Assembly (NCBI GenBank): GCA_964596355.1 | Contig: CAZQTD010000002.1 | Coordinates: 24,929 to 88,928 of the forward strand | Direction of reading: 5' to 3' | Source: an uncultured Gammaproteobacteria bacterium | GTDB taxonomy: Bacteria > Patescibacteriota > Microgenomatia > UBA10105 > UBA927 | DNA: 64,000 bases | Part shown: one piece after another, positions 34,112-64,000 of the stretch | Numbering within the stretch: position 1 is the first letter of the stretch | How the letters are laid out: each line of letters starts with the position of its first letter | Translations under genes and position numbers: made by a program | The notes under the pieces: generated by a model | The model's database searches: none | Told to the model about the DNA's origin: nothing | What the model saw: only the letters and a program-made list of their open reading frames with translations

Positions 34112-34152
34112 TTTACACACGATATCGATATATGAGAAATCGAACAATTATC

Positions 34153-34494: not shown

Positions 34495-34495
34495 T

Positions 34496-36147: not shown

Positions 36148-36392
36148 ACATGAATATCATTCAGTACAGTGTACTTGCTTTCATCCTTATTGCCGGAATT
36201 GCGTCGTTTCAGTATGTTAAACCCGATTCAACAGCACAGCTTATGATTGGGATTGCAACATCTGTGGCATATGTGGCGTGGGGCATTATTCATCATTTCA
36301 TTCGGCGAGATTTGCACAAGCGGGTTGTAGTAGAATATATTTTGATTGGAGCGATTGCAATCACTCTTCTTGTTACCGTTATAGACCTATAA
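36144..36392 (+). CDS. small integral membrane protein (2-3 TM), hypothetical
   Basis: 82 aa with hydrophobic helices. Overlaps the previous stop (ATGA). Confidence 0.3.
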   Translation: MNMNIIQYSVLAFILIAGIASFQYVKPDSTAQLMIGIATSVAYVAWGIIHHFIRRDLHKRVVVEYILIGAIAITLLVTVIDL

Positions 36393-36396: not shown

Positions 36397-37134
36397 ATGA
36401 AGGGAGTTATTCTTGCAGGCGGACTTGCGACAAGGCTTCGGCCGCTGACACTTGTTACCAACAAACACCTATTGCCCGTTTACCACAAGCCGATGATTTA
36501 TTACCCGCTTGAGGCGATGCACCGCAGCGGCATCAAAGAGGTGCTTCTTACCACATCGCCTGACCACGCGGGTCATTTTGCCAACTTGCTCAAAGCGGGC
36601 GAGGACTTTGATCTTAAGCTCTATTATGCTGTGCAGCAAAATGCCAAAGGCGGCATCGCCCAAGCAATCGCCCTTGCTCAAGAGTTTGCCAAAAACGAGT
36701 GCGTGGTTGTACTTCTTGGCGACAATATATTTACCGTGAACTTGAAGCAATCAATACAAAAAATCGAATCACAAGGCCGCGGCGCAATGGTTTTTGGCGT
36801 TCGTCGCAGCATGGATTCGAAGCAGTATGGTGTCATCGAGGTTGACGCGAACGGAAAAGTTTTGTCTATAGAAGAAAAGCCTGAACACCCCAAGAGCAAC
36901 ATCGTGCAAACGGGCATTTATGTGTATGACAGCAGGGTATTTGACTTTATCCAAAAACTTACGCCGAGCGCGAGAGGTGAGCTTGAAGTAACGGATTTAA
37001 ATAACCTCTACGTACAAGAGGGGTCATTATACTGTGAAATTATCGATTGGTGGGTTGATGCCGGAACGTCGTACGATGAGCTTCTGCGGGCAAACAACGA
37101 AGTGGCACAGATGGTAAGAGAAGGAAAGTTATGA
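36397..37134 (+). CDS. rmlA: glucose-1-phosphate thymidylyltransferase-like sugar nucleotidyltransferase (short RmlA)
   Basis: MKGVILAGGLATRLRPLT...KHLLPV is the RmlA/G1P nucleotidyltransferase signature. 245 aa, so the C-terminal oligomerisation extension is missing. Confidence 0.75.
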   Translation: MKGVILAGGLATRLRPLTLVTNKHLLPVYHKPMIYYPLEAMHRSGIKEVLLTTSPDHAGHFANLLKAGEDFDLKLYYAVQQNAKGGIAQAIALAQEFAKNECVVVLLGDNIFTVNLKQSIQKIESQGRGAMVFGVRRSMDSKQYGVIEVDANGKVLSIEEKPEHPKSNIVQTGIYVYDSRVFDFIQKLTPSARGELEVTDLNNLYVQEGSLYCEIIDWWVDAGTSYDELLRANNEVAQMVREGKL

Positions 37135-37273
37135 TTAGGAAGTAGTCTTGGAAATGCACGTTTTTTGCCTCGCGTGATGAATGCTACTGGATATCATAAC
37201 GGCAACACAAGTCCGAGGTACCATGAAACGTTAAATGCAATGCAGGGCAAAAAGCAAAACGTCACTATCTCAT

Positions 37274-37750
37274 ATGATTGATGGAGTTGCTATAAAAGAA
37301 TTGATTCGCCATCCGGACGAACGGGGATTTTTTGAAGAAATAATCAGGCGCACTGACCCCTTTTTTGCCGAGGGGTTTGGACAGCTGTCGCGGTCTTCCA
37401 TGCATCAGGGTGTTGTAAAAGCTTGGCACGTTCATAAAACGCAGATTGACTGGTGGTATCTTGTGCGGGGAATTATGAAAGTTGCCCTTTACGATACACG
37501 CAAGGAGTCAAAAACATATAAAGAACTGAATGAATTCGTTTTAGGCGAACAGGGAAAGCCTAACCGTGTATTAAAAATTCCTGCTGGGGTCGCTCACGGA
37601 TTGAAGGTGCTTGTGGGGCCTGCTGACCTTGTGTACGTTACCAGTCGTACGTATGCCAAAGACGAAGAGGGGCGCATCGCGTACGATGATCCCGGTATCG
37701 GCTATGATTGGGTGCAGGGAATACCGATTACTAATATACACGTCACATAG
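37274..37750 (+). CDS. rmlC: dTDP-4-dehydrorhamnose 3,5-epimerase
   Basis: Cupin fold with DERGFFEE...GQLSRSSMHQGVVKAWHVH typical of RmlC. Start set at MIDGV. Confidence 0.8.
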   Translation: MIDGVAIKELIRHPDERGFFEEIIRRTDPFFAEGFGQLSRSSMHQGVVKAWHVHKTQIDWWYLVRGIMKVALYDTRKESKTYKELNEFVLGEQGKPNRVLKIPAGVAHGLKVLVGPADLVYVTSRTYAKDEEGRIAYDDPGIGYDWVQGIPITNIHVT

Positions 37751-37814
37751 ATATGAATCATTTAGAGGTTGGAGGTGTGGGTTGAGAATAGTATAGAAGA
37801 TACATAATTTTTTC

Positions 37815-38804
37815 ATGAAACTTCTGGTAACCGGTGGGGCCGGATTCATCGGCTCGAACTTTATTCTGTATTGGATGGACCGTCATCCCGATGATAGCGT
37901 GGTTAATATAGACGCGTTGACGTATGCTGGCAACCTTGACAATTTGGCACCTGTTAACAATAACCCGCGATATCAATTTATTCACGGAGATATCTGTGAC
38001 GTTAATGTTGTGACCAAGGCGCTTGCGGGCGTTGATACGGTCGTTCATTTTGCGGCAGAGAGCCATGTGGATCGGTCAATTGATAAACCGTTGCCGTTTG
38101 TGATGACGAATATTGTGGGTACACACGTTCTGTTGGAGGCAGCGTTGAAGGCAAAGGTTCAGCGATTTCACCATATTTCTACGGATGAAGTCTATGGATC
38201 TCTTGAATTAGGAACATTGGATAGATTTAGTGAACGAACAAAATATAACCCCAGAAGTCCATATTCGGCGAGCAAAGCTGCTTCAGATCATTTAGTAAAC
38301 GCATACTTTCATACGTACGGTTTACCTATTACAATTACGAATTGTTCCAATAATTATGGTCCATTTCAGTTTCCGGAAAAATTCATTCCCCTTACCATTA
38401 CTAATATTCTGGAAGGCAAAAAAGCGCCTCTTTATGGAGACGGTAAACATGTGCGCGATTGGCTTTATGTATTAGATCATTGTCGCGCAATCGAGCTTGT
38501 GTTGACCAAAGGCAAGGTCGGTGAAACATATTGCGTTGGAGGGCTTACCGAAGACGTTGACAACGAGACGGTGATGAAAAAAATTCTACAGATTATGGGC
38601 AAGGATGAGTCGTTTATCGAGCGGGTGAACGACAGGCCGGGTCATGACCGACGGTACGCGATTGACTGGTCAAAAATTCACCGCGAGTTAGGGTGGCAGC
38701 CAGAGCATGATTTTGACACATGGTTAACCAAAACAGTTAAGTGGTACAAAACGCATGAGTCATGGTGGAAAAAAATCAAATCCCGTGAATATGCAAAGCT
38801 ATGA
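37815..38804 (+). CDS. rmlB: dTDP-glucose 4,6-dehydratase
   Basis: MKLLVTGGAGFIGSNF Rossmann motif and YSASKAASD catalytic YxxxK. Confidence 0.9.
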   Translation: MKLLVTGGAGFIGSNFILYWMDRHPDDSVVNIDALTYAGNLDNLAPVNNNPRYQFIHGDICDVNVVTKALAGVDTVVHFAAESHVDRSIDKPLPFVMTNIVGTHVLLEAALKAKVQRFHHISTDEVYGSLELGTLDRFSERTKYNPRSPYSASKAASDHLVNAYFHTYGLPITITNCSNNYGPFQFPEKFIPLTITNILEGKKAPLYGDGKHVRDWLYVLDHCRAIELVLTKGKVGETYCVGGLTEDVDNETVMKKILQIMGKDESFIERVNDRPGHDRRYAIDWSKIHRELGWQPEHDFDTWLTKTVKWYKTHESWWKKIKSREYAKL

Positions 38805-39685
38805 AGATATTAGGAACAGGATTATCAGGGCTTGTCGGTTCGCGCGTTGTTGAACTTCTTTCACCCCCTTGGAGTTTTGAAAACTTGAGTCTTGAAACTG
38901 GTATTGATATTACTGACAAAACGCTCGTGACGCGCTACATTGAGCAATCAGAAAGCCAGTGGGTTTTCCATTTTGCGGCAATTACTGATGTTGACGGATG
39001 TGAACAAGAAAAAGATAGAGGCCAGCAGAGCAGATCGTGGCAGGTCAACGTTGCAGCCACAGAACACATCGTTCAAGCGTGCAAGGAGACCGGAAAGCGC
39101 ATGGTGTATATTTCCACAGATTTTGTTTTTGACGGCACGAAACCGTCATATACCGAAGAAGATATTCCTAATCCTCTGAGCTGGTACGCGCTGACAAAAT
39201 ATGAAGGCGAGAAACGGGTCACTGCCTTGGGCGATCGCGGGCTTATTGTGCGCATCGCCTACCCCTATCGCGCAACAGCTGCCGGCAAGCCTGATTTTGT
39301 CCATAGAATACTTGAAAGATTACAACAGGGCAGTCCGGTGACTGCTCCAAGCGATTCGTTTATTACGCCGACGTTTATCGATGATATTGCCTATGCCTTG
39401 AAAAAACTTATATCGGCACGTTCAAGCGGCATCTATCATGTGGTTGGAGGCGCCGCGACGACTCCTTTTGAGGCGGCGCAAACGATCGCTCGCGTGTTTG
39501 AACTAGACAGTTCGCACATTACATCGATTATGCATGAAGACTATTACAAGAATCGAGCGAGGCGTCCCTTTTACGGCATACTCAAACATGATAAAATAGC
39601 GAAATTCGGTGTCGCTATGTCTACTTTGGAAGACGGGTTGCGAGCGGTACGTGAACAGGTAGGTAAGGCGCGTAAAGACGTATGA
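38801..39685 (+). CDS. rmlD: dTDP-4-dehydrorhamnose reductase
   Basis: MKILGTGLSGLVGSRV start, RmlD-like SDR with YALTKYEGE (YxxxK). 4-nt overlap with rmlB. Confidence 0.85.
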   Translation: MKILGTGLSGLVGSRVVELLSPPWSFENLSLETGIDITDKTLVTRYIEQSESQWVFHFAAITDVDGCEQEKDRGQQSRSWQVNVAATEHIVQACKETGKRMVYISTDFVFDGTKPSYTEEDIPNPLSWYALTKYEGEKRVTALGDRGLIVRIAYPYRATAAGKPDFVHRILERLQQGSPVTAPSDSFITPTFIDDIAYALKKLISARSSGIYHVVGGAATTPFEAAQTIARVFELDSSHITSIMHEDYYKNRARRPFYGILKHDKIAKFGVAMSTLEDGLRAVREQVGKARKDV

Positions 39686-40980
39686 CGATAGCATTTATCG
39701 GCCATGGGTACGTTGGACTTGTTTCTGCCGCTGTATTTGCGGATTTAGGTAATACCGTGTGGGTGGTCGGACGAACGAAGGAGAAAATAGATAAGCTTAA
39801 ACGCGGCATAGCGACGTTTTATGAGCCGGGTCTTTCGGAGTTGGTCAAACGCAACGTTGACGCAGGCAGATTGCTTTTTACGCTGGACTATAAAGACGCG
39901 GTCGTTCCATCCACAATCATTTTTATTTGTGTGGGCACGCCTGCCAGGCGCAATGGCGAGGCAGACCTAACGAGTGTTTTTTCAGCGGCTGAACACATAG
40001 GAAAAAATCTCACGGGTTATAAAGTAGTGGCAACAAAAAGTACCGTGCCGCCGGGAACAAATCGCAAGGTAGCTGCAATTCTTGCAAAACACGCTTCGCG
40101 GGATGCGTTGTTTGACGTTGCATCGGTGCCGGAATTCTTGCGTGAAGGAAGCGCCATAGACGATACGCTTCATCCGGATCGTGTCGTTATTGGCTGTGAT
40201 GCGAAGCGAGCCTGCAAACTGCTTCTTGAACTCCACAAGCCTATTGACGGCAAGACGGTGCTTTGTGCTATAGAGACTGCGGAACTTATCAAATACGCAT
40301 CCAATTCGCTTTTGTCTACAAAAATATCGTTTGCCAACGCCATATCATTTCTTGCGGAAAGGGTTGGAGCAGATGCAGAGCAGGTTTTGGAAGGTGTTGG
40401 ACTGGACAAAAGGCTGGGCAGAAGTTTTCTCTATCCCGGGGTTGGATATGGCGGCAGTTGCTTCCCCAAAGACGTGAAAGCGCTTATCGCTATCGCCAAG
40501 GAGCACGGGTATGATTTTAGCCTTCTTAAGGCGGTTGACGCTATAAACAAGGAGGCTGCCGAACATTTTATAGAGAAAATCTTGAACCACTTTGACGGTA
40601 AACTCGCAGGAAAAACCATCGCGATATGGGGACTATCATTTAAGCCAAATACCGATGACATGCGAGAAGCGCCGTCAATATCAATAATTTCACGTCTTGT
40701 TCGCGAGGGGGCAACTGTTCGCGCCTACGATCCCGCGGCTGTGGAAAACGCGAAGCTCGTGTTGCCCAAAAGCGTCGAATTTACCAGAAGCGCGCAAGAG
40801 GCAGCAACCGGAGCAGACGCGGTTGCTGTCATCACAGAATGGAATGAATTTCGCCAGATTGATCTGGAGAAGCTAGCTAAAAATCTTAAAAGCAGAGTTC
40901 TTTTTGATGGAAGGAACATTTACGATCCCGAGCGTGTAAAAGAGGCGGGTTTTCTGTATTATAGTGTTGGGAGGGGATAA
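39682..40980 (+). CDS. ugd: UDP-glucose 6-dehydrogenase / nucleotide-sugar dehydrogenase
   Basis: IAFIGHGYVGLVSA Rossmann motif and catalytic Cys region GGSCFPKDV. Confidence 0.85.
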   Translation: MTIAFIGHGYVGLVSAAVFADLGNTVWVVGRTKEKIDKLKRGIATFYEPGLSELVKRNVDAGRLLFTLDYKDAVVPSTIIFICVGTPARRNGEADLTSVFSAAEHIGKNLTGYKVVATKSTVPPGTNRKVAAILAKHASRDALFDVASVPEFLREGSAIDDTLHPDRVVIGCDAKRACKLLLELHKPIDGKTVLCAIETAELIKYASNSLLSTKISFANAISFLAERVGADAEQVLEGVGLDKRLGRSFLYPGVGYGGSCFPKDVKALIAIAKEHGYDFSLLKAVDAINKEAAEHFIEKILNHFDGKLAGKTIAIWGLSFKPNTDDMREAPSISIISRLVREGATVRAYDPAAVENAKLVLPKSVEFTRSAQEAATGADAVAVITEWNEFRQIDLEKLAKNLKSRVLFDGRNIYDPERVKEAGFLYYSVGRG

Positions 40981-40983
40981 ATT

Positions 40984-41943
40984 ATGGTTAAGAAAAAAGT
41001 ATTCATTACCGGTATTGCCGGGTTTGTGGGGAGCCATTTGGCGGAATTGCTTCTGCATAAGGGGTTTGAAGTGTATGGACTTGTACGGCCGCGCAGCAAC
41101 ACCGATCACATTGAATCCATCATGAGCAGACTGCGGCTGGTGGACGCCGATCTAATGGACACCCACAGTCTCTATACAACCATCAATAGGATTAAGCCTG
41201 ATTTTATTTTCCATCTGGCTGCACAATCGTTCGTTCCAACATCATGGGTTTCTCCGTCGGTGACGCTGGAGGTCAATGTTGTGGGATCCGCAAACCTCTT
41301 CGAAGCGGTTAAGATGGCAAAAATAGATCCCGTCATCCAGATTGCGTGTTCTTCAGAAGAATACGGTTTGGTTATGCCCGAAGAACTGCCAATAGTGGAA
41401 ACGAACCCCCTGCGGCCGCTTTCTCCGTATGCGGTATCAAAAGTCGCAATGGATTATTTGGGATACCAGTATTACCAATCGTACAAGGTGCGAATTGTGC
41501 GGACTCGCGGGTTTAACCATACCGGTCCAAGGCGTGGAGAAACGTTTGCCGAGTCGAATTTTGCCAAGCAAATTGCGATGATTGAAAAGGGCAAACAAGA
41601 ACCGGTCGTCAGCGTCGGAAATTTGGATGCAAGCCGTGACTATACCGATGTGCGGGATATGGTGCGCGCGTACCTTTTGGCTGTTGAGAAGTGCGACCCG
41701 GGCGACGTTTACAATATCTGTTCAAATAAAACGGTCAAAATTGGCGATATGCTTAACCTTCTTGTATCATATGCAAAGGTGAAGGTGACGGTAAAGACGG
41801 ACCCCGCACGGATGCGTCCCAGCGACGTGCCGATACTTTTGGGAAGCAGCAAGAAATTTTTTGATAAAACCGGTTGGAAGCCAGAGATCCCGTTTGAAAA
41901 AACCATGGAAGATCTTCTTAATTACTGGCGGGCGAGAGTGTGA
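40984..41943 (+). CDS. NAD-dependent nucleotide-sugar epimerase/dehydratase (Gmd/UXS/ArnA-C-terminal-like extended SDR)
   Basis: VFITGIAGFVGSHLAELLL and YAVSKVAMD (YxxxK). Its position directly after ugd suggests it acts on UDP-glucuronate or a related sugar. Confidence 0.7.
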   Translation: MVKKKVFITGIAGFVGSHLAELLLHKGFEVYGLVRPRSNTDHIESIMSRLRLVDADLMDTHSLYTTINRIKPDFIFHLAAQSFVPTSWVSPSVTLEVNVVGSANLFEAVKMAKIDPVIQIACSSEEYGLVMPEELPIVETNPLRPLSPYAVSKVAMDYLGYQYYQSYKVRIVRTRGFNHTGPRRGETFAESNFAKQIAMIEKGKQEPVVSVGNLDASRDYTDVRDMVRAYLLAVEKCDPGDVYNICSNKTVKIGDMLNLLVSYAKVKVTVKTDPARMRPSDVPILLGSSKKFFDKTGWKPEIPFEKTMEDLLNYWRARV

Positions 41944-41950
41944 CGCTGCT

Positions 41951-43063
41951 ATGAATCTGGTCTTCATTCTTCCCACGTATAACGAACGGGAGAATATTGT
42001 TACGCTGCTTGAAGCGCTTAGAAAAGCGACGTCAAAAGTTAAAGGCTATACGATTACGTATCTTATCGTTGATGATAATTCTCCGGATGGCACAAAAGAT
42101 GAAGTGTTGCGGTACAAAAAAACTCACCCTACCGTTCAGGTGGTATCCGGCAAGAAAGAAGGTTTGGGCAAAGCGCTATTGCGGGGAATGAAGTATGCGG
42201 TTCATACGCTTCGTACCGACATTTTGTTTCAAATGGATGCGGACTTATCGCATGATCCCTCTAAAGTGCCGGAATTTTTAGAGCATCTGGCAAAGGGCGC
42301 GGATTTTGTCATCGGAAGCAGATACATTCCGGGAGGGTCTATACCGGACAACTGGGGAGCGCACCGAAAGCTTTTTAGCAGGGCTGGTAATGCGATCGTG
42401 CGGTTTGGGCTCGGATATCCGCATGTGCATGACTGGACAGGAGGATTTAGAGCGTTTCCCAAAAAGTATTATGAATTATTGCATGAAGAAGTTTCTCCGT
42501 ACAGCGGATACGTATTTCAAATAGCATTTTTGCACCGCGCGATTATGAAAGGCGCGCGTGTTGCCGAAGTGCCGTTTAGATTTACGGATAGACGGTTTGG
42601 CAGGTCAAAAATAGCGCCCGCCGAATATATCCGCAATGTGTTGGTATATGTGGCAAATGCCAGAATGATGCAATGCATACATGGCCCCATCGGCAAGATG
42701 CTTGTTGTGGGCGCCATAGGGTTTGTCATCAATACGATTATTCTTGAGGCCGGCGTTGCGCTGGGTTTGGATCCGACGGTTGGAAGCGCGGCAGGAGCAG
42801 AAACAGCGATTATATCGAATTTTATCCTCAACAACACGTGGACGTTTCGGGAGAGAAAAATTATCGGCATAAGATTAATCAGTAAATTCCTGCAATTTAA
42901 CGCGACGTCGTTTGGCGCGATACTCATTCAGACGGCAACAGTGTTTGCGGGCACGCGATTGTTTGGTCACGGCGTGTATCGGTTGTTTTACATGATGGGC
43001 GTGGGAATCGGTTTGGTATGGAATTTTACAATGTACGCAAAGGTCATCTGGAGAAAAAAATGA
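41951..43063 (+). CDS. GT2 polyprenol-phosphate glycosyltransferase fused to C-terminal GtrA-like domain
   Basis: Start refined to MNLVFILPTYNERENI. GT2 core with DDNSPDGT and DADLSHDP, then four C-terminal TM helices resembling the GtrA family (residues 250-370). Confidence 0.75.
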   Translation: MNLVFILPTYNERENIVTLLEALRKATSKVKGYTITYLIVDDNSPDGTKDEVLRYKKTHPTVQVVSGKKEGLGKALLRGMKYAVHTLRTDILFQMDADLSHDPSKVPEFLEHLAKGADFVIGSRYIPGGSIPDNWGAHRKLFSRAGNAIVRFGLGYPHVHDWTGGFRAFPKKYYELLHEEVSPYSGYVFQIAFLHRAIMKGARVAEVPFRFTDRRFGRSKIAPAEYIRNVLVYVANARMMQCIHGPIGKMLVVGAIGFVINTIILEAGVALGLDPTVGSAAGAETAIISNFILNNTWTFRERKIIGIRLISKFLQFNATSFGAILIQTATVFAGTRLFGHGVYRLFYMMGVGIGLVWNFTMYAKVIWRKK

Positions 43064-43067
43064 ACAT

Positions 43068-45358: not shown

Positions 45359-45366
45359 ATTAGCGT

Positions 45367-46506: not shown

Positions 46507-46525
46507 TCTCCGTATATCCTTCTTT

Positions 46526-48028: not shown

Positions 48029-48034
48029 CCCGTT

Positions 48035-51925: not shown

Positions 51926-51926
51926 C

Positions 51927-55238: not shown

Positions 55239-55245
55239 TCTGATT

Positions 55246-56025: not shown

Positions 56026-58342
56026 CATGAATAGTGTGCGAAAGAACTTGTGGTCGATTCTTTTGATCGTCGCGGTGTGGCTTATATTTTCTTCACCGTA
56101 CATTTTGAAAGGCCTTGTTCCGTTTCCGTCGACGTATTTGGTTACCTTTTTTCCGCCGTGGAGCGCAACGTACGGAATGCCGGTCAAAAACTCCGCGATG
56201 CCGGACGTCATTACACAAATCTATCCATGGAAGACATTGACCATCGAACGCTGGAAAGCCGGACAAATCCCCCTATGGAACCCGTATAGTTTTTCCGGGA
56301 CTGCTCACGCCGCCAACTACCAAACCGCCGTGTTTTCACCGGTGCAAGCGTTATTTTTTTTACTTCCTTTTATAGATGCGTGGAGCATTATGATTCTCAT
56401 TCAGCCCCTTCTTGCCGGGATATTCATGTATGTATTGTTGCGAAGTTTCAATCGATCGGGCGCAGCGAGTGTTATCGGAAGTCTTGCATTTATGTTTTGC
56501 GGGTTCATGGTTACATGGATGGCATATGGAACGCTTGGCTACGCTGCGCTTTGGCTGCCGCTTATTTTCTACGCAATTCATAGCGGGTGGGAAAGACCCA
56601 CTGTCTGGAAATACGCTATGGTTAGTATCGGTCTTGCATTATCCTTTCTTTCGGGCCACTTTCAGATAAGCCTTTATGTTTCGCTACTATCTTGCGGTTA
56701 CATCGCTTATCGAATACTTCGGACAAAGGAATATGCGACGGGTCTAAGATTTGCCCTGTTTTTTCTGCTTGGCCTCCTCATTGCAGCGCCCCAATTATTA
56801 TTGAGTTTTGATGCATATACCAAGTCGGTCAGGATGACGAATTATGTCAAGGCAGAGATCATTCCTTGGGAGTATCTTATTACGCTTCTTGCGCCTGATT
56901 TTTACGGCAATCCGGTCACCCGCAACGACTGGTTTGGACATTACGCGGAATGGGCAGGGTATATAGGCGTAGCTCCGCTTCTTTTGGCTTTGTTTTCTGT
57001 ATCCAAAAAAAGAAAACAAGATGAATGGTTTTTTATACTCTGCAGTGGTGCCGCCTTGCTGTTGGCGTTGCCGACTCCATTTACCGATTTTCTTTTCATG
57101 ATAAAACTTCCTGTACTGTCAACAAGCGCCGCATCAAGAATTATTATTCTTGTCAGTTTCAGCCTCGCGACGCTATCGGCATATGGCTTTGACCATTTGA
57201 ACGAAAGATGGAAAAAATGCACGCTTCTGCCGGTTTTTCGGTTTATACTTTTTGTATTGATTATCGTTGGGGGCATATGGATATACATGGTCGTCGCCCG
57301 TCCGCTCCCTGCGGATAAGCTAGCGATCGCCAAACGAAATTTTATCCTCCCCACAGCGTTGACCGTCGCGTCGCTTGCCATATTCATCGCGGGTTTTGTG
57401 AAGAAGGCTGGCATGTCGCTTCTTGCGCCGTTTCTTCTGTGTCTGGTTGTTGCGTTTGACGTCAGTAGATTTGCGACAAAATGGATGCCGTTTGACCCAA
57501 AAGAATATATGTACCCAAAGGAAAAATCTCTTCAATTCCTTGAGTCTCATGCAGGATATGACCGAGTGTTTGGAAATATCGGGAATGAAGTGGCATCGAT
57601 GTTTCATCTGTCTGTTGTGGAAGGGTATGACGCGATGTATCAGGGGAGATATGCTGAATTTATCAACGCGGCATCCAAAGGGAAGGTCATTGAAGGTGAT
57701 CGGTCTGTGGTTCAATTTGATAAACATGGACTCTATAAAAAGGAAGCGCTGCAGCTTTTGGGTGTTCGGTATATATACCACAGGGTGAGGGACGGCAGGG
57801 CGCCATGGGTATTTCCATACTGGGAATACGGCGCCATGCGGCAGGTATATAACGATTCTGTTTATTGGATTTACGAATATACCGACGCCTATCCGCGGGC
57901 GTTTTTAGCGTCATCATACACGGTAGCAGTTGATAAGCAGGATATCATTGATGCGCTGTTTGCACCGGAGTTTGACCGCAGGGACACGCTTGTTCTTGAG
58001 GAAACTCCTCATTTGGAGCCTCAACCCGGACCGGGACAAGCCACGATACGGTCATATACCCCCAACGAGGTGATAATAGAGACGGAATCTTCCGTGCCGA
58101 AATTGCTGTTTTTATCTGACGTCTTTGACTCCGGCTGGAAGGCGTATATCGACGGAACGGCGTCACATCTGTATCGAGCGGATTATGATTTTCGTGCGGT
58201 TGCCGTGCCGGCGGGCAGTCACACGGTCCGATTTGTCTACTCCCCAACCTCTTTACGTATTGGAATACTGCTTTTTAGTATCGCGCTTGCAGGTATAATC
58301 GGATTACTTGGTAAAACAATCTATGAACATCGGGTTATATAG
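56015..58342 (+). CDS. YfhO-family GT-C glycosyltransferase (paralog A)
   Basis: 775 aa with more than 12 TM helices. N-terminal block PDVITQIYPWKTLTIERWKAGQIPLWNPYSFSGTAHAANYQTAVFSP and a large C-terminal extracytoplasmic domain. Confidence 0.65.
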   Translation: MKDDMNSVRKNLWSILLIVAVWLIFSSPYILKGLVPFPSTYLVTFFPPWSATYGMPVKNSAMPDVITQIYPWKTLTIERWKAGQIPLWNPYSFSGTAHAANYQTAVFSPVQALFFLLPFIDAWSIMILIQPLLAGIFMYVLLRSFNRSGAASVIGSLAFMFCGFMVTWMAYGTLGYAALWLPLIFYAIHSGWERPTVWKYAMVSIGLALSFLSGHFQISLYVSLLSCGYIAYRILRTKEYATGLRFALFFLLGLLIAAPQLLLSFDAYTKSVRMTNYVKAEIIPWEYLITLLAPDFYGNPVTRNDWFGHYAEWAGYIGVAPLLLALFSVSKKRKQDEWFFILCSGAALLLALPTPFTDFLFMIKLPVLSTSAASRIIILVSFSLATLSAYGFDHLNERWKKCTLLPVFRFILFVLIIVGGIWIYMVVARPLPADKLAIAKRNFILPTALTVASLAIFIAGFVKKAGMSLLAPFLLCLVVAFDVSRFATKWMPFDPKEYMYPKEKSLQFLESHAGYDRVFGNIGNEVASMFHLSVVEGYDAMYQGRYAEFINAASKGKVIEGDRSVVQFDKHGLYKKEALQLLGVRYIYHRVRDGRAPWVFPYWEYGAMRQVYNDSVYWIYEYTDAYPRAFLASSYTVAVDKQDIIDALFAPEFDRRDTLVLEETPHLEPQPGPGQATIRSYTPNEVIIETESSVPKLLFLSDVFDSGWKAYIDGTASHLYRADYDFRAVAVPAGSHTVRFVYSPTSLRIGILLFSIALAGIIGLLGKTIYEHRVI

Positions 58343-59345
58343 TCCGTATTTGGATTCGTTAAGCGGTGGTGAGCGGTATGTATTGACCATCGCGTCTCAC
58401 TGGTCGAAAACTCATACCGTGTCGATTTTTTGGAATGATCCTGCAATCACAACGATTGCAGGCAAGCGCTTTAATGTGGATTTAAGAACTGTTGCCGTCA
58501 AGCCCAATATATTTGTGCGAGGAAACTACTTCGGGAAATTGATTGAATCTCGCCGGTATGACTGCATCGTTTTTTTAAGCGACGGCAGCATTCCAATAAG
58601 TTTTGCGCGGAGAAATATTTTGCATTTTCAAGTTCCGTTTCAGCGCGTATTGTTTCCGCCGTGGAAGCGTGCGCTGTATAAACATATTGTATGCAATTCT
58701 CGCTTTACGAAAGACCATATCGATCCTGCTATTGGATCTCGTGCCCGCGTGATTTATCCACCGGTAGATGTGGAGCCTCAAAAGACGGTAAAAAAAGAAC
58801 CCATCATTTTGTCTGTGGGGAGGTTTTCTGAACTTAAAAATCAACGGGTGCTCATATCGGCTTTCAAGGAAGGGTACACGGCAGGCCGTTTTCCCAGGTG
58901 GAAGCTGGTTATGGCTGGGGGACTGCTGCCCAGTGATAGGAAGTATTACGAATCCTTGCGCCTGCAGGCGAGGCAATTGCCCGTCACATTTTATCCGAAC
59001 ATTGCGTACGAAGATCTTTGGAAGCTTTACGCAACGTCTGCGATTTTTTGGCATGCTGCTGGTTTCGGGCAAACGAAGCCGGAAAATATGGAGCACTTCG
59101 GCATTACGACGGTGGAAGCTATGGCAGCCGGCTGCATCCCGGTCGTTGTAAGTGCCGGAGGATTGAAAGAGATCGTGACGCATGGCAAAGACGGGTATCT
59201 GTGGAAAAATCCCAAGGAGCTCATTGAGTATTCGCTTGCCGCAATGACAGGAGAAAAGGCGGCTTTCCAAAAGAGAGCACAAACAAGAGCGTTAGATTTT
59301 AACGTTATGAAGTTTTGCCAGTCTTTTGACAGACTCCTTGTATGA
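58323..59345 (+). CDS. GT4 (GT-B fold) glycosyltransferase
   Basis: GGERYVLTIASHW N-terminal motif and C-terminal EHFGITTVEAMAAGCIPVV...GG..E, typical of group 1 (GT4) transferases. Start at MNIGLY. Confidence 0.65.
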   Translation: MNIGLYSPYLDSLSGGERYVLTIASHWSKTHTVSIFWNDPAITTIAGKRFNVDLRTVAVKPNIFVRGNYFGKLIESRRYDCIVFLSDGSIPISFARRNILHFQVPFQRVLFPPWKRALYKHIVCNSRFTKDHIDPAIGSRARVIYPPVDVEPQKTVKKEPIILSVGRFSELKNQRVLISAFKEGYTAGRFPRWKLVMAGGLLPSDRKYYESLRLQARQLPVTFYPNIAYEDLWKLYATSAIFWHAAGFGQTKPENMEHFGITTVEAMAAGCIPVVVSAGGLKEIVTHGKDGYLWKNPKELIEYSLAAMTGEKAAFQKRAQTRALDFNVMKFCQSFDRLLV

Positions 59346-61633
59346 AACGCCGGCTTTTTTTCCTTCACATTTGCTTGTTTGGTGTTGCAGCGCTGTTATT
59401 TTTTTATAAAACACTGTTTTTTGGGCTTTTGCCGGTTCCTTCAGACGCGCTCGTCGGTTTGTATCATCCGTGGCGGGACGCTTTTGCGCAGGAATATCCC
59501 CGCGGCATGCCGTTTAAGAACTTTTTGATTACCGATCCGGTCAGGCAGCAAATCCCGTGGCGGAAGCTTGCGGCGGACTCGTGGAAGCGGGGTGAGCCGC
59601 CGGCATGGAACCCAACTGCATTTTCTGGAACGCCGCTTGGCGCCAATGTTCAATCTGCCGCGTTTTACCCGCTCAACGTCTTGTTTTTGTTTTTGCCGTT
59701 TAGTGCGGCGTGGAGCGTCCTTATCCTTATCCAGCCGGTTATTGGCGGGATAGGCATGTTCCTTTATTTGGGTATGCTTGGCCTTGCAGCACCGGCAGCG
59801 ATGGTGGGCGCGATACTTTTTGGGTTTAGCGGTACTGCTGTAGCATGGATGACGTGGGGAACAATTGGACACGTTATGATGTGGACGCCGTTTGTCTTAA
59901 TTGCGGTCGAACGGCTTTTTTCTCCGTGTGACTATTCAAAGCACCGGCCGTTGTGGATTATACTGATAGCCGTTCTTTTTGTCCTTCAAATTACGGCGGG
60001 TCATCTGCAAGTTGCATTGTACTCAATAGGATTGGCGGCAATCTATGCTGTATGGAAATACACGATGAGCCCAAAAGATATGGTTCGCAAGCTACTGGGA
60101 TTTGCGCTGGCTTGCCTTAGTGCGCTTATTATTATCCTTCCGATACTTATTCCGCTTGTGAGGTTTCTAACAAGCACAAGTCGTCTGGCTGGAGCAAACT
60201 ACATGTCCGAAGGATTTTTTTTCCCACCAATCCACCTCATACAACTTATTGCGCCGGATTTTTTCGGGAACCCAGCAACGATGAATTATTGGGGGACGTG
60301 GAACTACGGTGAAATGGTGGCCTACGCGGGAGTTGGGGGCATTCTCTTTGCCCTTCTGGGCCTGACCGCATGGAAATCCAATACACACGTGCGGTTCTGG
60401 GCGTTCGTGGCCGGAGCTTCGGTAGTCCTAACTACCAAAAACCCTCTGACGCTTGCCGTCTATACGGCAAAAATTCCCATCCTTTCCTCTTTGCAGCCCA
60501 CGCGGCTTCTTATCATTTTTGATCCGGCGCTTGCCGTACTTGCCGCGATCGGGTTTGACAGATTTATCCGTGAGAAAACTCCGGCCGTACGGTATATCTG
60601 CGCGGGTATCGGGGGCATCATAGGTATTGCCGGGGTCATTGTTTCATACGCGCTTCTGACAACACGTGACGTTTTATTGCAGACCAATTATATGGTTGCA
60701 CGAAGAAATCTCATTATTCCCGCTGCCCTCCTTCTGGTGTCCGTTATTCTCATTGAGGCATATGAGCGATTGTTTATTATGAAACGGTTGAATTTTCTGA
60801 AAACCGCGATCGTTTACTGCCTCGTCGGCGTGATCATTGCAGACCTATTCCGATTCGGCTGGAAATTCTTGCCGTTTACCGATTCCAAACACTTTTTTCC
60901 GGAAACGCAGATAATCGCATTTTTTAAACGCCAGAAACAACCATTCCGGATTATGACGCTCGATGACCGCGTATTTCCTCCTGATGCGCAGGCGTATTAC
61001 GGCCTGTCTTCAGTGGGAGGATACGATCCGCTTAGATCCGCGCGGTACGAGCGATTCATCGCTGTTGTCGAACAGGATCGAAGCGATGTTGCGCCTCCGT
61101 ATGGATTTGAGAGGATAATCAATCCGAAAAACTACCGCTCACGGTTGTTTGATCTTTTGCGCGTCCGGTATCTTGTGAGTTTGGAAGACATACGCGACCG
61201 GCAATTTTCCCTCGTGTTTCAGGAAGGGCAAACGCGCGTATACGAATATACGCGCGCTTTGCCGCTGGGACATTTCGTAACAACGCTCCTGCCTGCTTCT
61301 CGTAATGATGCGGCGCTAACTGCGATGGTTTCCGATGATTTTGATCCGCGCAAGCACGCAGTGGTCGAGGGCTTGGGAAAAGACGCAGTGCTGTTTTTAT
61401 CCGAATCGGAAGATACGGTGAAGGTTGTTGGATACAGTCAAAATAACACACTATTTTCCACGCATACAAAGGAGCATAAGTTTTTGTCTACTGGACTTAT
61501 ATACGATCCGGGGCTTCGGGCAACGGTAGACGGCAAAGCGGCACGAGTTTACCGGACAAATTACGTATATTCTGGTATTATAGTCCCCAGCGGTGACCAC
61601 ACGGTCGCATTCACCTACAGACTCATTGATTGA
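59342..61633 (+). CDS. YfhO-family GT-C glycosyltransferase (paralog B)
   Basis: 763 aa. N-terminal block TDPVRQQIPWRKLAADSWKRGEPPAWNPTAFSGTPLGANVQSAAFYP aligns with the gene at 56015. Multi-TM. Confidence 0.65.
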   Translation: MKRRLFFLHICLFGVAALLFFYKTLFFGLLPVPSDALVGLYHPWRDAFAQEYPRGMPFKNFLITDPVRQQIPWRKLAADSWKRGEPPAWNPTAFSGTPLGANVQSAAFYPLNVLFLFLPFSAAWSVLILIQPVIGGIGMFLYLGMLGLAAPAAMVGAILFGFSGTAVAWMTWGTIGHVMMWTPFVLIAVERLFSPCDYSKHRPLWIILIAVLFVLQITAGHLQVALYSIGLAAIYAVWKYTMSPKDMVRKLLGFALACLSALIIILPILIPLVRFLTSTSRLAGANYMSEGFFFPPIHLIQLIAPDFFGNPATMNYWGTWNYGEMVAYAGVGGILFALLGLTAWKSNTHVRFWAFVAGASVVLTTKNPLTLAVYTAKIPILSSLQPTRLLIIFDPALAVLAAIGFDRFIREKTPAVRYICAGIGGIIGIAGVIVSYALLTTRDVLLQTNYMVARRNLIIPAALLLVSVILIEAYERLFIMKRLNFLKTAIVYCLVGVIIADLFRFGWKFLPFTDSKHFFPETQIIAFFKRQKQPFRIMTLDDRVFPPDAQAYYGLSSVGGYDPLRSARYERFIAVVEQDRSDVAPPYGFERIINPKNYRSRLFDLLRVRYLVSLEDIRDRQFSLVFQEGQTRVYEYTRALPLGHFVTTLLPASRNDAALTAMVSDDFDPRKHAVVEGLGKDAVLFLSESEDTVKVVGYSQNNTLFSTHTKEHKFLSTGLIYDPGLRATVDGKAARVYRTNYVYSGIIVPSGDHTVAFTYRLID

Positions 61634-62565
61634 TACGCGCTATGAAAAATCGACCGCTTACGATTTCTGTCGTCATTCCCAATTGGAATGGCCGAGTGCT
61701 GCTTGAACGCCATTTGCCCACAATAGTGGCCAGATCTGCGGTGGCGCGTGAGATTATTGTTGTTGATGACGGATCAACTGATGATTCATGCGAATTCGTT
61801 AAAAAAAATTACCCGAACATCGTAATTGTTCAAAAGCAAAAAAATGAGGGATTTGCATCTACTGTGAATATCGGTGTTAAGAAAGCCGCGAGCGAACTGG
61901 TATGTCTTTTAAATACCGACGTTCTGCCGGAAAAGGGGTATCTGGAAGCTGTTATACCGCATTTTGCCAACCCAAAGGTTTTTGCCGTCGGCAGTCTGGA
62001 TAAAAGTCATGAAGGAAACCGCGTCGTTGACCGCGGCCGGGGCCTATCTCGGTGGGAACGCGGGTTTTATATTCACAAGCGCGGAGACGTGAATAAATCA
62101 ACGACTGCATGGGTTGCCGGCGGAAGCGGAACATTCCGACGATCCGTGTGGCTGTCACTGGCAGGCATGGATACACTCTACAATCCGTTTTATTGGGAAG
62201 ATATTGATTTATCATACCGCGCGATTAAAGCAGGATATTCTCTCATATTTGAGCCGAAAAGCATTGTTCACCACATGCACACCGAAGGGGCAATAACGAA
62301 GCATTTTTCGCCTTGGGTAGTCAAACGGATTGCCTATAGAAATCAATTTATTTTCCACTGGAAAAACATATCCGATGGCGGCATCATCGTTTCACATCTG
62401 GCATGGTTACCCGTCCGTTTGATTCAGGCGTGCTTTCGCCTTGACACGGCGATAATCGTCGGATTTTTCGGAGCGCTTCTTCGATTGCCTCGCATTATAC
62501 CCAAACGGCTTGACGCCATCCGTCGCTGGAAACTTCCGGATGACGCGTGCGTGCTTCCAAAATGA
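61630..62565 (+). CDS. GT2 glycosyltransferase
   Basis: ISVVIPNWNG, VVDDGSTDDS and an EDIDLSYR motif. 4-nt overlap with the YfhO gene. Confidence 0.75.
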   Translation: MIRAMKNRPLTISVVIPNWNGRVLLERHLPTIVARSAVAREIIVVDDGSTDDSCEFVKKNYPNIVIVQKQKNEGFASTVNIGVKKAASELVCLLNTDVLPEKGYLEAVIPHFANPKVFAVGSLDKSHEGNRVVDRGRGLSRWERGFYIHKRGDVNKSTTAWVAGGSGTFRRSVWLSLAGMDTLYNPFYWEDIDLSYRAIKAGYSLIFEPKSIVHHMHTEGAITKHFSPWVVKRIAYRNQFIFHWKNISDGGIIVSHLAWLPVRLIQACFRLDTAIIVGFFGALLRLPRIIPKRLDAIRRWKLPDDACVLPK

Positions 62566-62573
62566 TTCTGCCG

Positions 62574-63842
62574 TTACAGTTGATAGGGTGATATTCCACT
62601 TTGGGTATAGAGGTAATAAAAATAGAGGTATGACTGGGGGTTTCCGTCAGAAAATCCTATGGTTTTCCCTTCCTTGATTGCCTGTTTTACCAACCTTCTA
62701 TCTTTCGTGAGGTTTCCCTCGGCCGCTAAGAAAAACTTCTGCGTGTTTGTGACTACGTAATACATCCAAAAGATCACTACTGCCGCCTTGGTCACAATTA
62801 ACTTCCGGGCCCATATCCAATGGCTAATATACGCAAGGATAATAATCGCGATATACAAATGGAGAGAAAAGTAATAATCGCTTATTTCGCCGCTATACGC
62901 AGTGAATAGTATCCACGGGACAATGAACCATAACAGCACAAGATAGCGAAGTTTCTTGGCATTATCGCCGGTATGACGCGTGCGGTGCAGGATAAAAAAC
63001 AGCGGGAGATAGAGAAAGCCGCTTGAGCGCAAGAATCCGTACGGGAATTCCAGTATGGATACGAACTTAATGAACGCATCGTGCGTGAGCTGAAAAAATC
63101 GCATCAGATGAAATCCATGATAGTACTGTCCAATATACGTGTTGATGGAGCCTGCACGCCGTCCGCCGGAATGCGCGTAATACAGCGCTTGAGGAATGAG
63201 GCCTGCGCCCAGGATGCATGCGGCAACTGCCAGATATGCTATTTTCGTTTTGTGAAAAGACACCAGCGGCAGCGATAACAGCGTGATGATAAGAAAAAAT
63301 AGTGACGTAACATGAATATGAAACGATAAGGCTAATACGAATCCCAGATAGAGAATGTGTTTGGGTTTTTCAGTTACTGCGCCGTACAAAAAATAGAGTA
63401 TGAGAAGTGAAAACGACGGGATGAAATTTACCGGCCACTGCGAGCGTTCAAAAAATATGATGTACGAGGAGAACGTGTAGATGCACGATGAGATGAGCGC
63501 AATGTTTTCATCAAACAGGCGCTTGGCTACATAATATAAGACAATGAAGTTGAATAGACCTGTGAAGCCGGCAAGAAGCGGAGAAGCGATGGGGTCAAGC
63601 TGCGTTATGGCGTAGAAAACAGCGACGAGATAGTAATAGAACGGGCCGATATAAATACCGCTGTTTGCTTTGGCCACCATGCCCACGAGGGGATATTTAT
63701 GTGCAACGAGAATTCTCACTGCCGCCCACGCGTTGTCAATTTGATCCCACGTAAACGATGCCCAGCGTTCCAAATGATAAAATCGAAAGAACAGGTGAAA
63801 CAGAAATAACAGAAACAAAAGGAAGAAATGCTTTTTATTCAT
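62574..63842 (-). CDS. polytopic GT-C-type glycosyltransferase (paralog of 43068-44609)
   Basis: 422 aa with more than 10 TM helices. WDQIDNAW after TM1 and a GIYIGPFYYYL block shared with the 43068 gene. Convergent with the + strand locus. Confidence 0.5.
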   Translation of the reverse strand: MNKKHFFLLFLLFLFHLFFRFYHLERWASFTWDQIDNAWAAVRILVAHKYPLVGMVAKANSGIYIGPFYYYLVAVFYAITQLDPIASPLLAGFTGLFNFIVLYYVAKRLFDENIALISSCIYTFSSYIIFFERSQWPVNFIPSFSLLILYFLYGAVTEKPKHILYLGFVLALSFHIHVTSLFFLIITLLSLPLVSFHKTKIAYLAVAACILGAGLIPQALYYAHSGGRRAGSINTYIGQYYHGFHLMRFFQLTHDAFIKFVSILEFPYGFLRSSGFLYLPLFFILHRTRHTGDNAKKLRYLVLLWFIVPWILFTAYSGEISDYYFSLHLYIAIIILAYISHWIWARKLIVTKAAVVIFWMYYVVTNTQKFFLAAEGNLTKDRRLVKQAIKEGKTIGFSDGNPQSYLYFYYLYTQSGISPYQL

Positions 63843-63878
63843 GGTATTATATGTAGTAATAGTACTGCATTTATCAGG

Positions 63879-64000
63879 ATGAAGAAACTGTTTGCGACTG
63901 TTCCGTTTGGTCTTATCATCGTCACGCTCATCGCCGGCGCACTTCGATTGCCTGCGTTAGCCAAATACCCCGTTGGATTTCACATCGATGAAGCGTCGCT
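63879..64000 (+). CDS. ArnT/PMT-like GT-C glycosyltransferase, N-terminal fragment (continues beyond window)
   Basis: MKKLFATVPFGLIIVTLIAGALRLPALAKYPVGFHIDEASL has a TM1 then a HIDEA acidic loop motif, like the gene at 46526. Confidence 0.4.
   Translation, partial: MKKLFATVPFGLIIVTLIAGALRLPALAKYPVGFHIDEAS

Follow-up and report, generated by a model that had tools for sequence, protein, structure and literature searches.

The 64,000-nucleotide stretch of DNA analysed here (the window) covers positions 24,929 to 88,928 of contig CAZQTD010000002.1 (assembly GCA_964596355.1), and from position 36397 to its end it holds a glycosylation locus. All 24 of the consecutive open reading frames (ORFs) in this part carry a glycan-related assignment in the ORF listing and by Pfam, as a preliminary description made from the sequence had proposed. 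The host is a groundwater bacterium of the Candidate Phyla Radiation (CPR, or Patescibacteria), Candidatus Gottesmanbacteria, and the named homologs come from Candidatus Gottesmanbacteria or 'Patescibacteria group' metagenome-assembled genomes (MAGs). The locus opens with the sugar-supply genes g01-g06, and three modules follow. Module 1 is a lipid-sugar synthase (g07) and then a membrane glycosyltransferase of the GT-C fold class (g08); module 2 is a synthase (g09) and then the GT-Cs g10, g11, g12 and g13; and module 3 comprises a synthase (g14), the Wzx flippase g15, the family 2 glycosyltransferases (GT2) g16-g18, the YfhO-family GT-C g19, the family 4 glycosyltransferase (GT4) g20, a further YfhO (g21) and a GT2 (g22). 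Nine genes are assigned as GT-Cs (g08, g10, g11, g12, g13, g19, g21, g23 and g24); the total stands at nine to ten, with at least ten in about 30 kb, a density as unusual as was first described. Gene starts were adjusted with the help of the genes called on a Logan contig of identical sequence, and the genes are as follows.

g01, 36397-37134, plus strand: RmlA, short form of 245 aa, glucose-1-phosphate thymidylyltransferase (PF00483, E 4.5e-59; top PDB matches all RmlA, E 3e-63)
g02, 37235-37750, plus strand: RmlC, dTDP-4-dehydrorhamnose 3,5-epimerase (PF00908, E 2.5e-22)
g03, 37815-38804, plus strand: RmlB-type NDP-hexose 4,6-dehydratase (PF16363, E 1e-84; PF01370)
g04, 38801-39685, plus strand: RmlD, dTDP-4-dehydrorhamnose reductase (PF04321, E 1.3e-59)
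g05, 39682-40980, plus strand: UDP-glucose 6-dehydrogenase (three UDPG_MGDP_dh domains; PDB)
g06, 40984-41943, plus strand: GMD/RMD-like short-chain dehydrogenase/reductase (SDR; PDB 2pk3, E 5.7e-87, next GDP-sugar dehydratases/reductases)
g07, 41951-43063, plus strand: polyprenyl-phosphate sugar synthase with the architecture of archaeal dolichyl-phosphate mannose synthase (DPMS), a GT2 domain plus a four-helix GtrA/DPMS transmembrane (TM) domain (PF00535, PF04138)
g08, 43068-44609, plus strand: GT-C (PMT_2) with a DEGRD motif after TM1 (PF13231, 35.9 bits against a cut-off of 26.1; BLASTP to its paralog g23, E 1.6e-23)
g09, 44606-45358, plus strand: TM-less Dpm1/GtrB/ArnC/PgfS-like synthase, 250 aa (PF00535; PDB 5mlz best, then GtrB sll0501 and ArnC)
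g10, 45367-46506, plus strand: GT-C of the GT87/MptA_B (PimE/ALG3/PIG-M-like) class (GT87, 30.8 bits against a cut-off of 25)
g11, 46526-48028, plus strand: GT-C (PMT_2) with a TDEA motif after TM1 (PF13231, 35.9 bits)
g12, 48035-49570, plus strand: GT-C of a PTPS-related/mini-YfhO family, with DD after TM1 and, at the C-terminus, an extracytoplasmic beta-sandwich and a TM helix
g13, 49567-51219, plus strand: PTPS-related GT-C, paralog of g12 (BLASTP 26% identity, E 8.6e-34), with HDD after TM1; homologs match PF10131
g14, 51188-51925, plus strand: TM-less Dpm1/ArnC/AglJ-like synthase, 245 aa, candidate primer of the Wzx branch (PF00535; PDB 5mlz, E 9e-16, then ArnC)
g15, 51927-53372, plus strand: Wzx/MOP-family flippase (PF13440, E 3e-49; PF01943)
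g16, 53369-54277, plus strand: GT2 of Leloir type, paralog of g18 (PF00535; BLASTP to g18, E 5e-43)
g17, 54279-55238, plus strand: GT2 (Glyco_tranf_2_3) with weak rhamnosyltransferase-like similarity, paralog of g22
g18, 55189-56025, plus strand: GT2 (PF00535); start uncertain (55150, 55189 or 55246)
g19, 56027-58342, plus strand: YfhO-family GT-C, 771 aa (PF09586, E 6e-21, 74.9 bits), paralog of g21 (E 3.6e-93)
g20, 58323-59345, plus strand: GT4 glycosyltransferase of GT-B fold (PF00534, E 7e-28)
g21, 59342-61633, plus strand: YfhO-family GT-C, 763 aa (PF09586, E 9e-15, 54.5 bits)
g22, 61642-62565, plus strand: GT2 (Glyco_tranf_2_3; Pfam, NCBIfam)
g23, 62574-63842, minus strand: GT-C (PMT_2) with a DQID motif, paralog of g08 and first gene of the variable downstream arm (PF13231, 38.4 bits)
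g24, 63879-64000, plus strand: PMT-family GT-C, the first 40 codons of 549 aa (PF02366, 39.6 bits against a cut-off of 22.7, read from Logan contig L002)

The genes g01-g22 are 22 consecutive plus-strand genes (36397-62565) with a coding fraction of 99.6%. From g03 to g22 the gaps do not exceed 19 nt, and six 4-nt overlaps (ATGA/GTGA) and three longer overlaps occur, which bears out the tight packing noted earlier; 4-nt overlaps bridge the module borders g08/g09, g12/g13 and g20/g21. g23 is convergent with g22, and g24 runs past the window edge. The contig L002 is identical to window 60858-64000 and reaches 3.3 kb beyond. The exact sequences of g12 and g23 matched only Logan contigs of SRR10095374, and exact-sequence look-ups of g19, g21 and P0121 matched no record. 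The GC content of the locus is 0.474 versus 0.476 in the rest of the window, its housekeeping half; a compositional island signature was not seen for the locus, and tRNA and Rfam scans found no element within it. The promoter scan was at background (32 sites versus 27 ± 4.5 expected) and uninformative for operon limits. Terminator-like sites numbered 37 versus 24.2 ± 5.1 in shuffles, lay within coding sequence, mostly of membrane-protein genes, and marked no gene boundary.

The presence of rmlACBD, ugd plus an SDR, a single GT4 and a Wzx, all named in the preliminary description, was borne out by Pfam and PDB searches, and the dTDP-L-rhamnose pathway is complete (RmlA, B, C and D all present). 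The best named PDB matches of g05 are UDP-glucose dehydrogenases (2y0e, E 3.7e-120), and the single best match, 3gg2 (E 1.5e-121), is assigned to the UDP-glucose/GDP-mannose dehydrogenase family without further specification. The SDR g06 is GMD/RMD-like and not a UDP-glucuronate decarboxylase. Its nearest solved relative, 2pk3, is a GDP-6-deoxy-D-lyxo-4-hexulose reductase, which makes GDP-D-rhamnose; its NCBIfam matches are below cut-off (gmd, E 5e-55), and the scores for the ArnA and UXS models fall far short of this (E 7.6e-11 and 1.2e-13). The GMD/RMD-like character of g06 also led us to reject a reading in which g05 and g06, as a Ugd plus UXS/ArnA pair, would supply an Arn-like pentose module that includes g07 and g08. 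An ArnA-type UDP-glucuronate decarboxylase/formyltransferase, as in the Arn (4-amino-4-deoxy-L-arabinose) pathway of lipid A modification, does not lie beside Ugd. RmlC, a cupin with no TM segment, has a weak match to PF14667 (Polysacc_synt_C, a flippase C-terminal domain) that recurs in two related genomes (L085 and L086) and is probably spurious.

Three GT2 genes (g07, g09 and g14) are the only DPMS/GtrB/ArnC-like GT2s of the region, and the best PDB match of all three is the P. furiosus Dol-P-Man synthase 5mlz. With this enzyme g07 (370 aa from the ATG at 41951, its start moved from the TTG at 41861) aligns over its full length, TM domain included (E 4.4e-40), and given this alignment a reading of g07 as a GT2-GtrA flippase fusion was dropped for a DPMS-type synthase. 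The PF04138 TM domain is the membrane anchor of g07, and g09 and g14 have no TM segment. For g09 the match to 5mlz has E 4e-15 and a PgfS-like match E 1.4e-20. NCBIfam gave AglJ, DPhHx and ArnC-like matches for g07, and the matches of all three synthases (AglJ, DPhHx, ArnC, PpgS and PgfS) are below equivalog cut-offs. The preliminary description had counted eight GT2 genes in the region, Dpm1/GtrB-like or other. Seven lie there, the eighth being outside at 23409-24119, and a Dpm1-like reading holds for g07, g09 and g14 but not for the other four, which form the paralog pairs g16/g18 and g17/g22 and resemble ordinary Leloir enzymes. The outlying gene encodes a 236-aa GT2 that follows a DegT/RfbH-like pyridoxal-phosphate enzyme (window 22221-24119, plus strand) and resembles PpgS, ArnC and AglJ. 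It is a fourth polyprenyl-phosphate-sugar-synthase-like gene, 13 kb upstream of the locus, and may provide an extra donor, possibly an amino or deoxy sugar.

The polytopic proteins are supported as GT-C transferases rather than transporters or Wzy polymerases because the PMT_2, PMT, YfhO and GT87 matches exceed the gathering thresholds. For g19 and g21, which had been described as YfhO genes, the PF09586 cut-off is 28.5 bits; both have their hydrophobic segments mostly in the first ~500 residues and carry a C-terminal extracytoplasmic domain, and D65 of YfhO loop 1 is invariant among 30 family members. The loop-1 motifs already reported are present (DEGRD in g08, DQID in g23, DEA in g11 and g24), and g12 and g13 have DD within SDDGEW and HDDTQV, respectively; each family has invariant acidic residues directly following TM1 or within loop 1. 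In g24 the motif reads HIDEAS at residues 35-40, the N-terminus on L002 being identical to the window tail. By PF02366 and this DE motif g24 belongs to the PMT family, whose characterised members are, to our knowledge, protein O-mannosyltransferases; mannose transfer to Ser/Thr is its candidate activity, for which the Thr/Pro-rich linkers nearby are circumstantial support. Four GT-C families had been proposed, each of paralogs. Four stand by Pfam family, but sequence comparison gives six groups (g08/g23, g11, g24, g10, g12/g13 and g19/g21): BLASTP detects paralogy for g08/g23, g12/g13 and g19/g21, and the pairing of g11 with g24 is unsupported, no similarity between them being detectable. Beyond the window end, at L002 301-1835 (about 1.7-3.2 kb past it, minus relative to the window), lie two overlapping ORFs, one of 150 aa with WDEP after TM1 and one of 361 aa with a weak Alg9-like GT22 match (E 0.002). 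This pair looks like one GT-C split by a frameshift, which would be either a pseudogene or an assembly error.

The pair g12 and g13 had been called PTPS-related. They are paralogs, and some of their homologs match PF10131 or PF09586, but the two proteins themselves have no Pfam match at E<=0.01. A profile-profile comparison of the g12/g13 family with the YfhO alignment gave 98.7% (E 1.7e-16), and on their sequences they are best described as relatives of PTPS_related/YfhO, not demonstrable members. Within the family D37 is invariant and D36 at least 90% conserved (39 sequences, g13 included), and these acidic loop-1 residues after TM1 accompany a polytopic core with a GT-C fold. PDB sequence searches with g12 and g10 returned no match even at E 10, and structure prediction was therefore used. 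The best structural matches were ALG3, GPI-MT-I and ALG6 for g10, and Pmt4, STT3B and ALG12 for g12 (7-16% identity); g10 thus combines a GT-C(B)-type fold with its family HMM match. The use of a lipid-phosphate-linked donor by g12 and g13 is putative, the adjoining synthase g09 being circumstantial context. The family is large (more than 4,500 clusters at 50% identity) and uncharacterised. It also includes tandem fusions and giants of 1,093-1,116 aa (two matched stretches), 1,670 aa (three) and 3,329 aa (four).

The flippase g15 matches the NCBIfam MOP flippase and O-glycosylation flippase models below cut-off. In the scanned ORFs of the 64-kb window we found no phosphoglycosyltransferase (PF00953/PF02397), Wzy, Wzz, ABC exporter or LCP; of a Wzx/Wzy-dependent pathway the window therefore holds Wzx without an initiating phosphoglycosyltransferase, polymerase or chain-length regulator. 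Rhamnan genes were not found in the window, nor was a stand-alone GtrA, PF04138 occurring solely as the C-terminal domain of g07.

A synteny comparison across relatives, which the preliminary description had proposed, was made on GTDB species-representative genomes scanned with a g12 profile, giving 80 loci, and by tblastn with all window proteins. In 60 of the 80 species-level loci g03-g20 are strictly consecutive and on one strand, as far as the 10-kb flanks reach. Amino-acid identity in the colinear loci is 38-82%, with medians from 46% (g13) to 78% (g06); g06 shows the strongest conservation of all genes (71-82%), and g03 has 66-78% identity across 26 colinear loci. A reduced core is retained in about 15 loci of greater divergence, among them all five with Levybacteria in the title, and has the order g09-g10-g11-(YfhO)-g12-g13-GT2-Wzx-g16-g17-(g12-like)-YfhO. 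The upstream context is the same in two ~1-Mb genomes (L085 and L086), running from TsaB through a CAP-domain protein and an 82-aa membrane protein to RmlA, RmlC and onwards, and the sugar-supply genes head the block in three genomes. Downstream of g21/g22 the order varies. This arm is rich in GT-Cs in relatives L083, L087 and L088, with extra YfhO (783-844 aa), PMT, PMT_2 and PTPS_related proteins and, in two, an S-adenosylmethionine-dependent methyltransferase; the relatives have 12-13 GT-Cs per locus. The locus spans ~28-45 kb or about 3-4% of a ~1-Mb genome (with a 995,214-bp chromosome as gauge). Its colinear conservation runs deep in Gottesmanbacteria, which favours a core envelope component over a variable antigen locus.

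Two irregularities were seen among the compared sequences. The g08 homolog of L085, a 995-kb Gottesmanbacteria chromosome, is split in the gene calls (7792-9272) into two ORFs of 84 and 418 aa with no Pfam match, which suggests a frameshift or a long-read assembly error. Many colinear contigs (L003-L082) are titled 'uncultured Gammaproteobacteria bacterium' (third-party assemblies), and single ones Bacteroidia, Limnocylindrales or Sulfotelmatobacter; mislabelling or mis-binning of MAG contigs is the probable cause.

It is reasonably probable, in our view, that the block builds glycans from polyprenyl-phosphate-linked sugars and attaches them at the outer face of the cytoplasmic membrane, through a shared-donor assembly line plus a Wzx branch. 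The donors, flipping, order of action and acceptor we infer from the gene identities and folds given above. Cytosolic enzymes, identified by homology, would supply dTDP-L-rhamnose (g01-g04), UDP-glucuronate (g05) and a GDP-6-deoxyhexose (g06) as their predicted products. The synthases g07, g09 and g14, whose class is assigned by homology, would load single sugars onto polyprenyl phosphate, and once these lipid-sugars had been flipped, nine to ten GT-Cs would take them as donors outside the membrane. With about three GT-Cs to each synthase, and with the GT-Cs standing in groups after the synthases (g08 behind g07, and g10-g13 behind g09), one donor would have to serve several GT-Cs, which would differ in their acceptor or in the linkage made.

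For module 3 the closest model is the lactococcal polysaccharide pellicle (PSP), in which Und-P-GlcNAc (on undecaprenyl phosphate, Und-P) is made by a GtrB-like enzyme, extended by cytosolic glycosyltransferases, flipped by Wzx and transferred by a GT-C (PMC10821137). Its genes are WpsA/B (primer on Und-P), WpsC-F (cytosolic glycosyltransferases), WpsG (Wzx), WpsH/I and WpsJ (GT-C) (PMC10821137). Module 3 is similar in logic and order, with the GtrB-like g14, Wzx g15, Leloir GT2/GT4 enzymes and the GT-Cs g19 and g21, an rml supply and no phosphoglycosyltransferase, and g14-g22 hold the gene content of a PSP-type system, with putative elongation by the cytosolic enzymes. By this analogy g14 would prime a lipid-phosphate sugar, g16, g17, g18, g20 and g22 would extend it in the cytoplasm with nucleotide sugars, and g15 would flip the extended product for transfer to the final acceptor by g19 and g21. 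Unlike in PSP, the terminal GT-Cs are of the YfhO family, and no rhamnan backbone genes, ABC exporter or WpsB-like activator were seen. A lipid-phosphate-primed module 3 would account for a window without phosphoglycosyltransferase, Wzy, Wzz, ABC exporter and LCP.

Multi-component transmembrane glycosylation systems are known as GtrA/B/C, CsbB/GtcA/YfhO and GacI/J/K/L (PMC8035078, PMC10821137), of which the last uses a Wzx flippase for a lipid-phosphate monosaccharide (PMC10821137). The locus shares with them a GT2 polyprenyl-phosphate-sugar synthase beside PMT_2/YfhO GT-Cs, a Wzx-type flippase as with GacK, and extracytoplasmic chemistry. These systems have about one synthase per GT-C and are scattered in the genome, whereas the locus has three synthases and at least nine GT-Cs in one 28-kb block, without a stand-alone GtrA-type flippase or a recognisable GacJ/WpsB partner. 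They also decorate a polymer from a separate, identifiable pathway, whereas no such pathway is visible in the window. The earlier proposal of several concatenated GtrA/GtrB/GtrC modules is not upheld, given three synthases against nine or more GT-Cs (a simple pair only at g07-g08), no dedicated small GtrA gene in the window, and Leloir GT2s and a GT4 beside Wzx. Stoichiometry and order are a better fit to a shared-donor assembly line with a lipid-phosphate-primed, Wzx-flipped oligosaccharide branch than to one-sugar decoration.

In mycobacteria and corynebacteria, the assembly of lipomannan (LM), lipoarabinomannan (LAM) and arabinogalactan and protein O-mannosylation employ Ppm1, PimE (GT87), MptA/B/C, Emb/Aft and Pmt, and few polyprenyl-phosphate-sugars feed many GT-Cs stepwise outside the membrane. 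The locus likewise has few donors and many GT-Cs, with g10 of the GT87/MptA_B class, TM-less Ppm1-like g09 and g14, and a PMT. The mycobacterial GT-Cs are dispersed, whereas those of the locus stand in one operon-like block, in another phylum and in a ~1-Mb genome; YfhO and PTPS-related families dominate it, and a context of PI-mannoside GT4s (PimA/B) was not identified. Few donors and many GT-Cs also recall the lumen of the endoplasmic reticulum (ER), where DPMS serves Dol-P-Man and Dol-P-Glc GT-Cs (ALG3/9/12, ALG6/8/10, PIG-M/V/B/Z and PMT1-7). To these the best structural matches of g10 and g12 and the full-length match of g07 to archaeal DPMS point, a likeness at fold level only in a bacterial context. 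Streptococcal O-glycosylation (GtrB-PgtC2; the Pgf operon PgfS/E/M1/M2; PMC12041528) is similar in having a PgfS-like GT2 with YfhO GT-Cs and Ser/Thr/Pro-rich linkers nearby. The Pgf operon has two GT-Cs and lies beside its adhesin substrates (PMC12041528), whereas the locus has far more GT-Cs together with Wzx and Leloir enzymes.

The acceptor is most likely a wall- or membrane-anchored glycopolymer. Plausibly, the PMT-type enzymes (g24, possibly g08, g11 and g23) also O-glycosylate Thr/Pro-rich linkers of surface proteins, and the most likely outcome is a mixed one, that is, a conserved glycopolymer or lipoglycan together with protein O-glycosylation by these enzymes.

Several points weigh against the proposed assembly line. 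The evidence for a single operon comes only from gene spacing, the promoter and terminator scans being uninformative. The synteny loci were chosen for a g12 homolog and so show conservation of order, not prevalence across Gottesmanbacteria, and the compared genomes are MAGs. A GacJ/WpsB/DPM2-like partner for the TM-less g09 and g14 is not recognisable by Pfam in the window, and modules 1 and 2 have no identified flippase for their monosaccharide carriers. None of the glycosyltransferases or GT-Cs has an equivalog-level NCBIfam assignment, scores being far below cut-offs, so that sugar specificity is not callable. The absence of phosphoglycosyltransferase, Wzy, LCP and exporter holds for the 64-kb window, not the genome.

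Extracytoplasmic proteins with Thr/Pro-rich tracts are encoded elsewhere in the window. A lamin-tail-domain (LTD) protein (31780-32634, plus strand; 4 kb upstream of the locus) has a ~60-aa Thr/Pro/Ser repeat (TPSPTPTLTPMPTLTPTNTPSSTPTHTPTKTPTPSKTPTTTKTPTPS; 84% S/T/P over 25 aa) and then a C-terminal TM anchor, and is a candidate O-glycosylation substrate. A transglycosylase-like (SLT/Rpf-type) protein (12625-13182, minus strand) and a membrane-anchored DsbA-like thioredoxin (24188-24961, plus strand) have Thr/Pro-rich linkers and are candidate acceptors.

An alternative that we hold to be unlikely, though it is the likeliest of the rivals, makes the locus primarily a general protein O-glycosylation machine, its PMT-, PMT_2- and YfhO-type GT-Cs being fed by the lipid-phosphate sugars and extending O-glycans stepwise on Ser/Thr/Pro-rich linkers of membrane-anchored or secreted proteins, possibly S-layer proteins or pilins. 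It would suit the PF02366 membership of g24, the PgfS-like character of g09 and g14, the Thr/Pro repeats of the LTD, transglycosylase-like and DsbA-like proteins, and the CAP protein with a Pro-rich linker that heads the conserved block. The YfhO-family enzymes PgtC2, PgfM1 and PgfM2 O-glycosylate Ser/Thr-rich intrinsically disordered regions in streptococci (PMC12041528). However, strong S/T/P tracts occur in just 2/63 window ORFs, and five Leloir glycosyltransferases with Wzx and an rml/ugd/RMD supply are suggestive of a product beyond monosaccharide O-glycans, namely a lipid-linked oligo- or polysaccharide. Moreover, g12, g13, g19 and g21 carry large extracytoplasmic beta-rich domains, and such domains have been proposed to bind polymer acceptors (PMC8035078).

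Still less probable is a classical Wzx/Wzy-type or synthase-type polysaccharide locus with its initiator, polymerase and ligase elsewhere, the GT-Cs being independent single-sugar decorators as in the concatenated GtrABC view. The decoration of teichoic acids and rhamnans by pairs of GT-A and GT-C enzymes is well known (PMC8035078), g07-g08 resembles a textbook pair of this kind, and Wzx, five Leloir enzymes and nucleotide-sugar genes are present. Yet known systems run at about 1:1 (PMC8035078) against three synthases to nine or more GT-Cs here; no phosphoglycosyltransferase, Wzy, Wzz or LCP was found in locus or window, nor a stand-alone GtrA; and such strict colinearity, in 60 species with about 50% identity, is out of keeping with the variability of O-antigen or capsule loci. 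We give even less credence to unrelated glycosylation systems lying side by side with no common product, clustered by compaction of a ~1-Mb genome. CPR genomes are compact, the whole window is densely coding, and relatives differ in the arrangement of the downstream arm (from g23 and g24 onwards), but g03-g20 order is invariant in 60 species-level loci with the core kept in Levybacteria, 4-nt overlaps span module borders, and sugar-supply genes stand at the head of the block in three genomes. That the polytopic proteins are transporters, Wzy-like polymerases or O-antigen ligases is scarcely credible: g12 and g13 have no Pfam match and that of g10 is weak, but the PMT_2, PMT, YfhO and GT87 matches are above gathering thresholds and the loop-1 Asp/Glu motifs are conserved.

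CPR bacteria have tiny genomes that lack many biosynthetic pathways, and cultivated members live attached to other cells. The size of the block, its gene-for-gene retention in at least 60 species-level lineages and its 10-13 GT-Cs together suggest an envelope glycan or glycoprotein coat under heavy selection, and the block probably builds a core surface sugar coat. A bolder and more tentative proposal is that the Microgenomates (Gottesmanbacteria, with a reduced form in Levybacteria) may possess a class-wide, vertically inherited envelope glycoconjugate, assembled almost wholly outside the membrane by a dozen sequential GT-Cs from only three or four polyprenyl-phosphate-sugar donors. If true, this would be a bacterial counterpart of ER-lumen or mycobacterial LAM-type assembly, packed into a single operon covering about 3-4% of a ~1-Mb genome. 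The glycan would be a hallmark of the surface of these ultra-small cells, perhaps an essential one, and a candidate for mediating attachment to a host, and g12/g13 would be a new functional GT-C family within this assembly.

All component families are already known, and the locus shows no new enzymatic principle; what is unusual is the GT-C density, the 3:10 ratio of synthases to GT-Cs and the strict colinearity across a CPR lineage. This 3:10 donor-to-transferase architecture extends the 'three-component' paradigm towards assembly-line logic. Literature searches on Gottesmanbacteria, CPR, Patescibacteria and Microgenomates combined with GT-C, YfhO and similar terms returned only passing mentions of GT87 or of multiple Dol-P-Man synthases in other CPR phyla, and no description of the locus was found. 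A study of Saccharibacteria calls CPR glycosylation processes unexplored (PMC11623550). The three lipid-sugar synthases and the large g12/g13 family offer concrete targets.

Two genes lie directly upstream of g01.

35161-36147, plus strand: CAP-domain membrane protein with a Pro/Ala/Thr-rich linker (PF00188, E 2e-21)
36144-36392, plus strand: 82-aa protein with three hydrophobic helices (weak DUF5656 match below cut-off)

The stop of the CAP gene overlaps the following ORF by 4 nt. The CAP protein is a conserved neighbour that heads the block and may or may not belong to it functionally. The 82-aa ORF finishes 4 nt before g01 and is also found between CAP and rmlA in L085 and L086 (three genomes in all). 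One may speculate that its product assists the TM-less synthases as a GacJ/WpsB/DPM2-like membrane partner, or acts as a small flippase.

Further upstream, at window 34108-35110 (plus strand), a TsaB-like ORF of just 128 aa is overlapped by a 240-aa, TTG-initiated ORF for a membrane-anchored protein with no Pfam match; this ORF is absent between TsaB and CAP in L085. A 695-aa class II aminoacyl-tRNA synthetase of D/K/N type (window 14625-16712, plus strand) has a C-terminal HD-domain match, an unusual fusion. The housekeeping part also encodes a TspO/MBR protein (window 13186-13668, plus strand) and a PIG-L/LmbE-family de-N-acetylase (window 725-1513, plus strand), which could act on GlcNAc-containing glycoconjugates.

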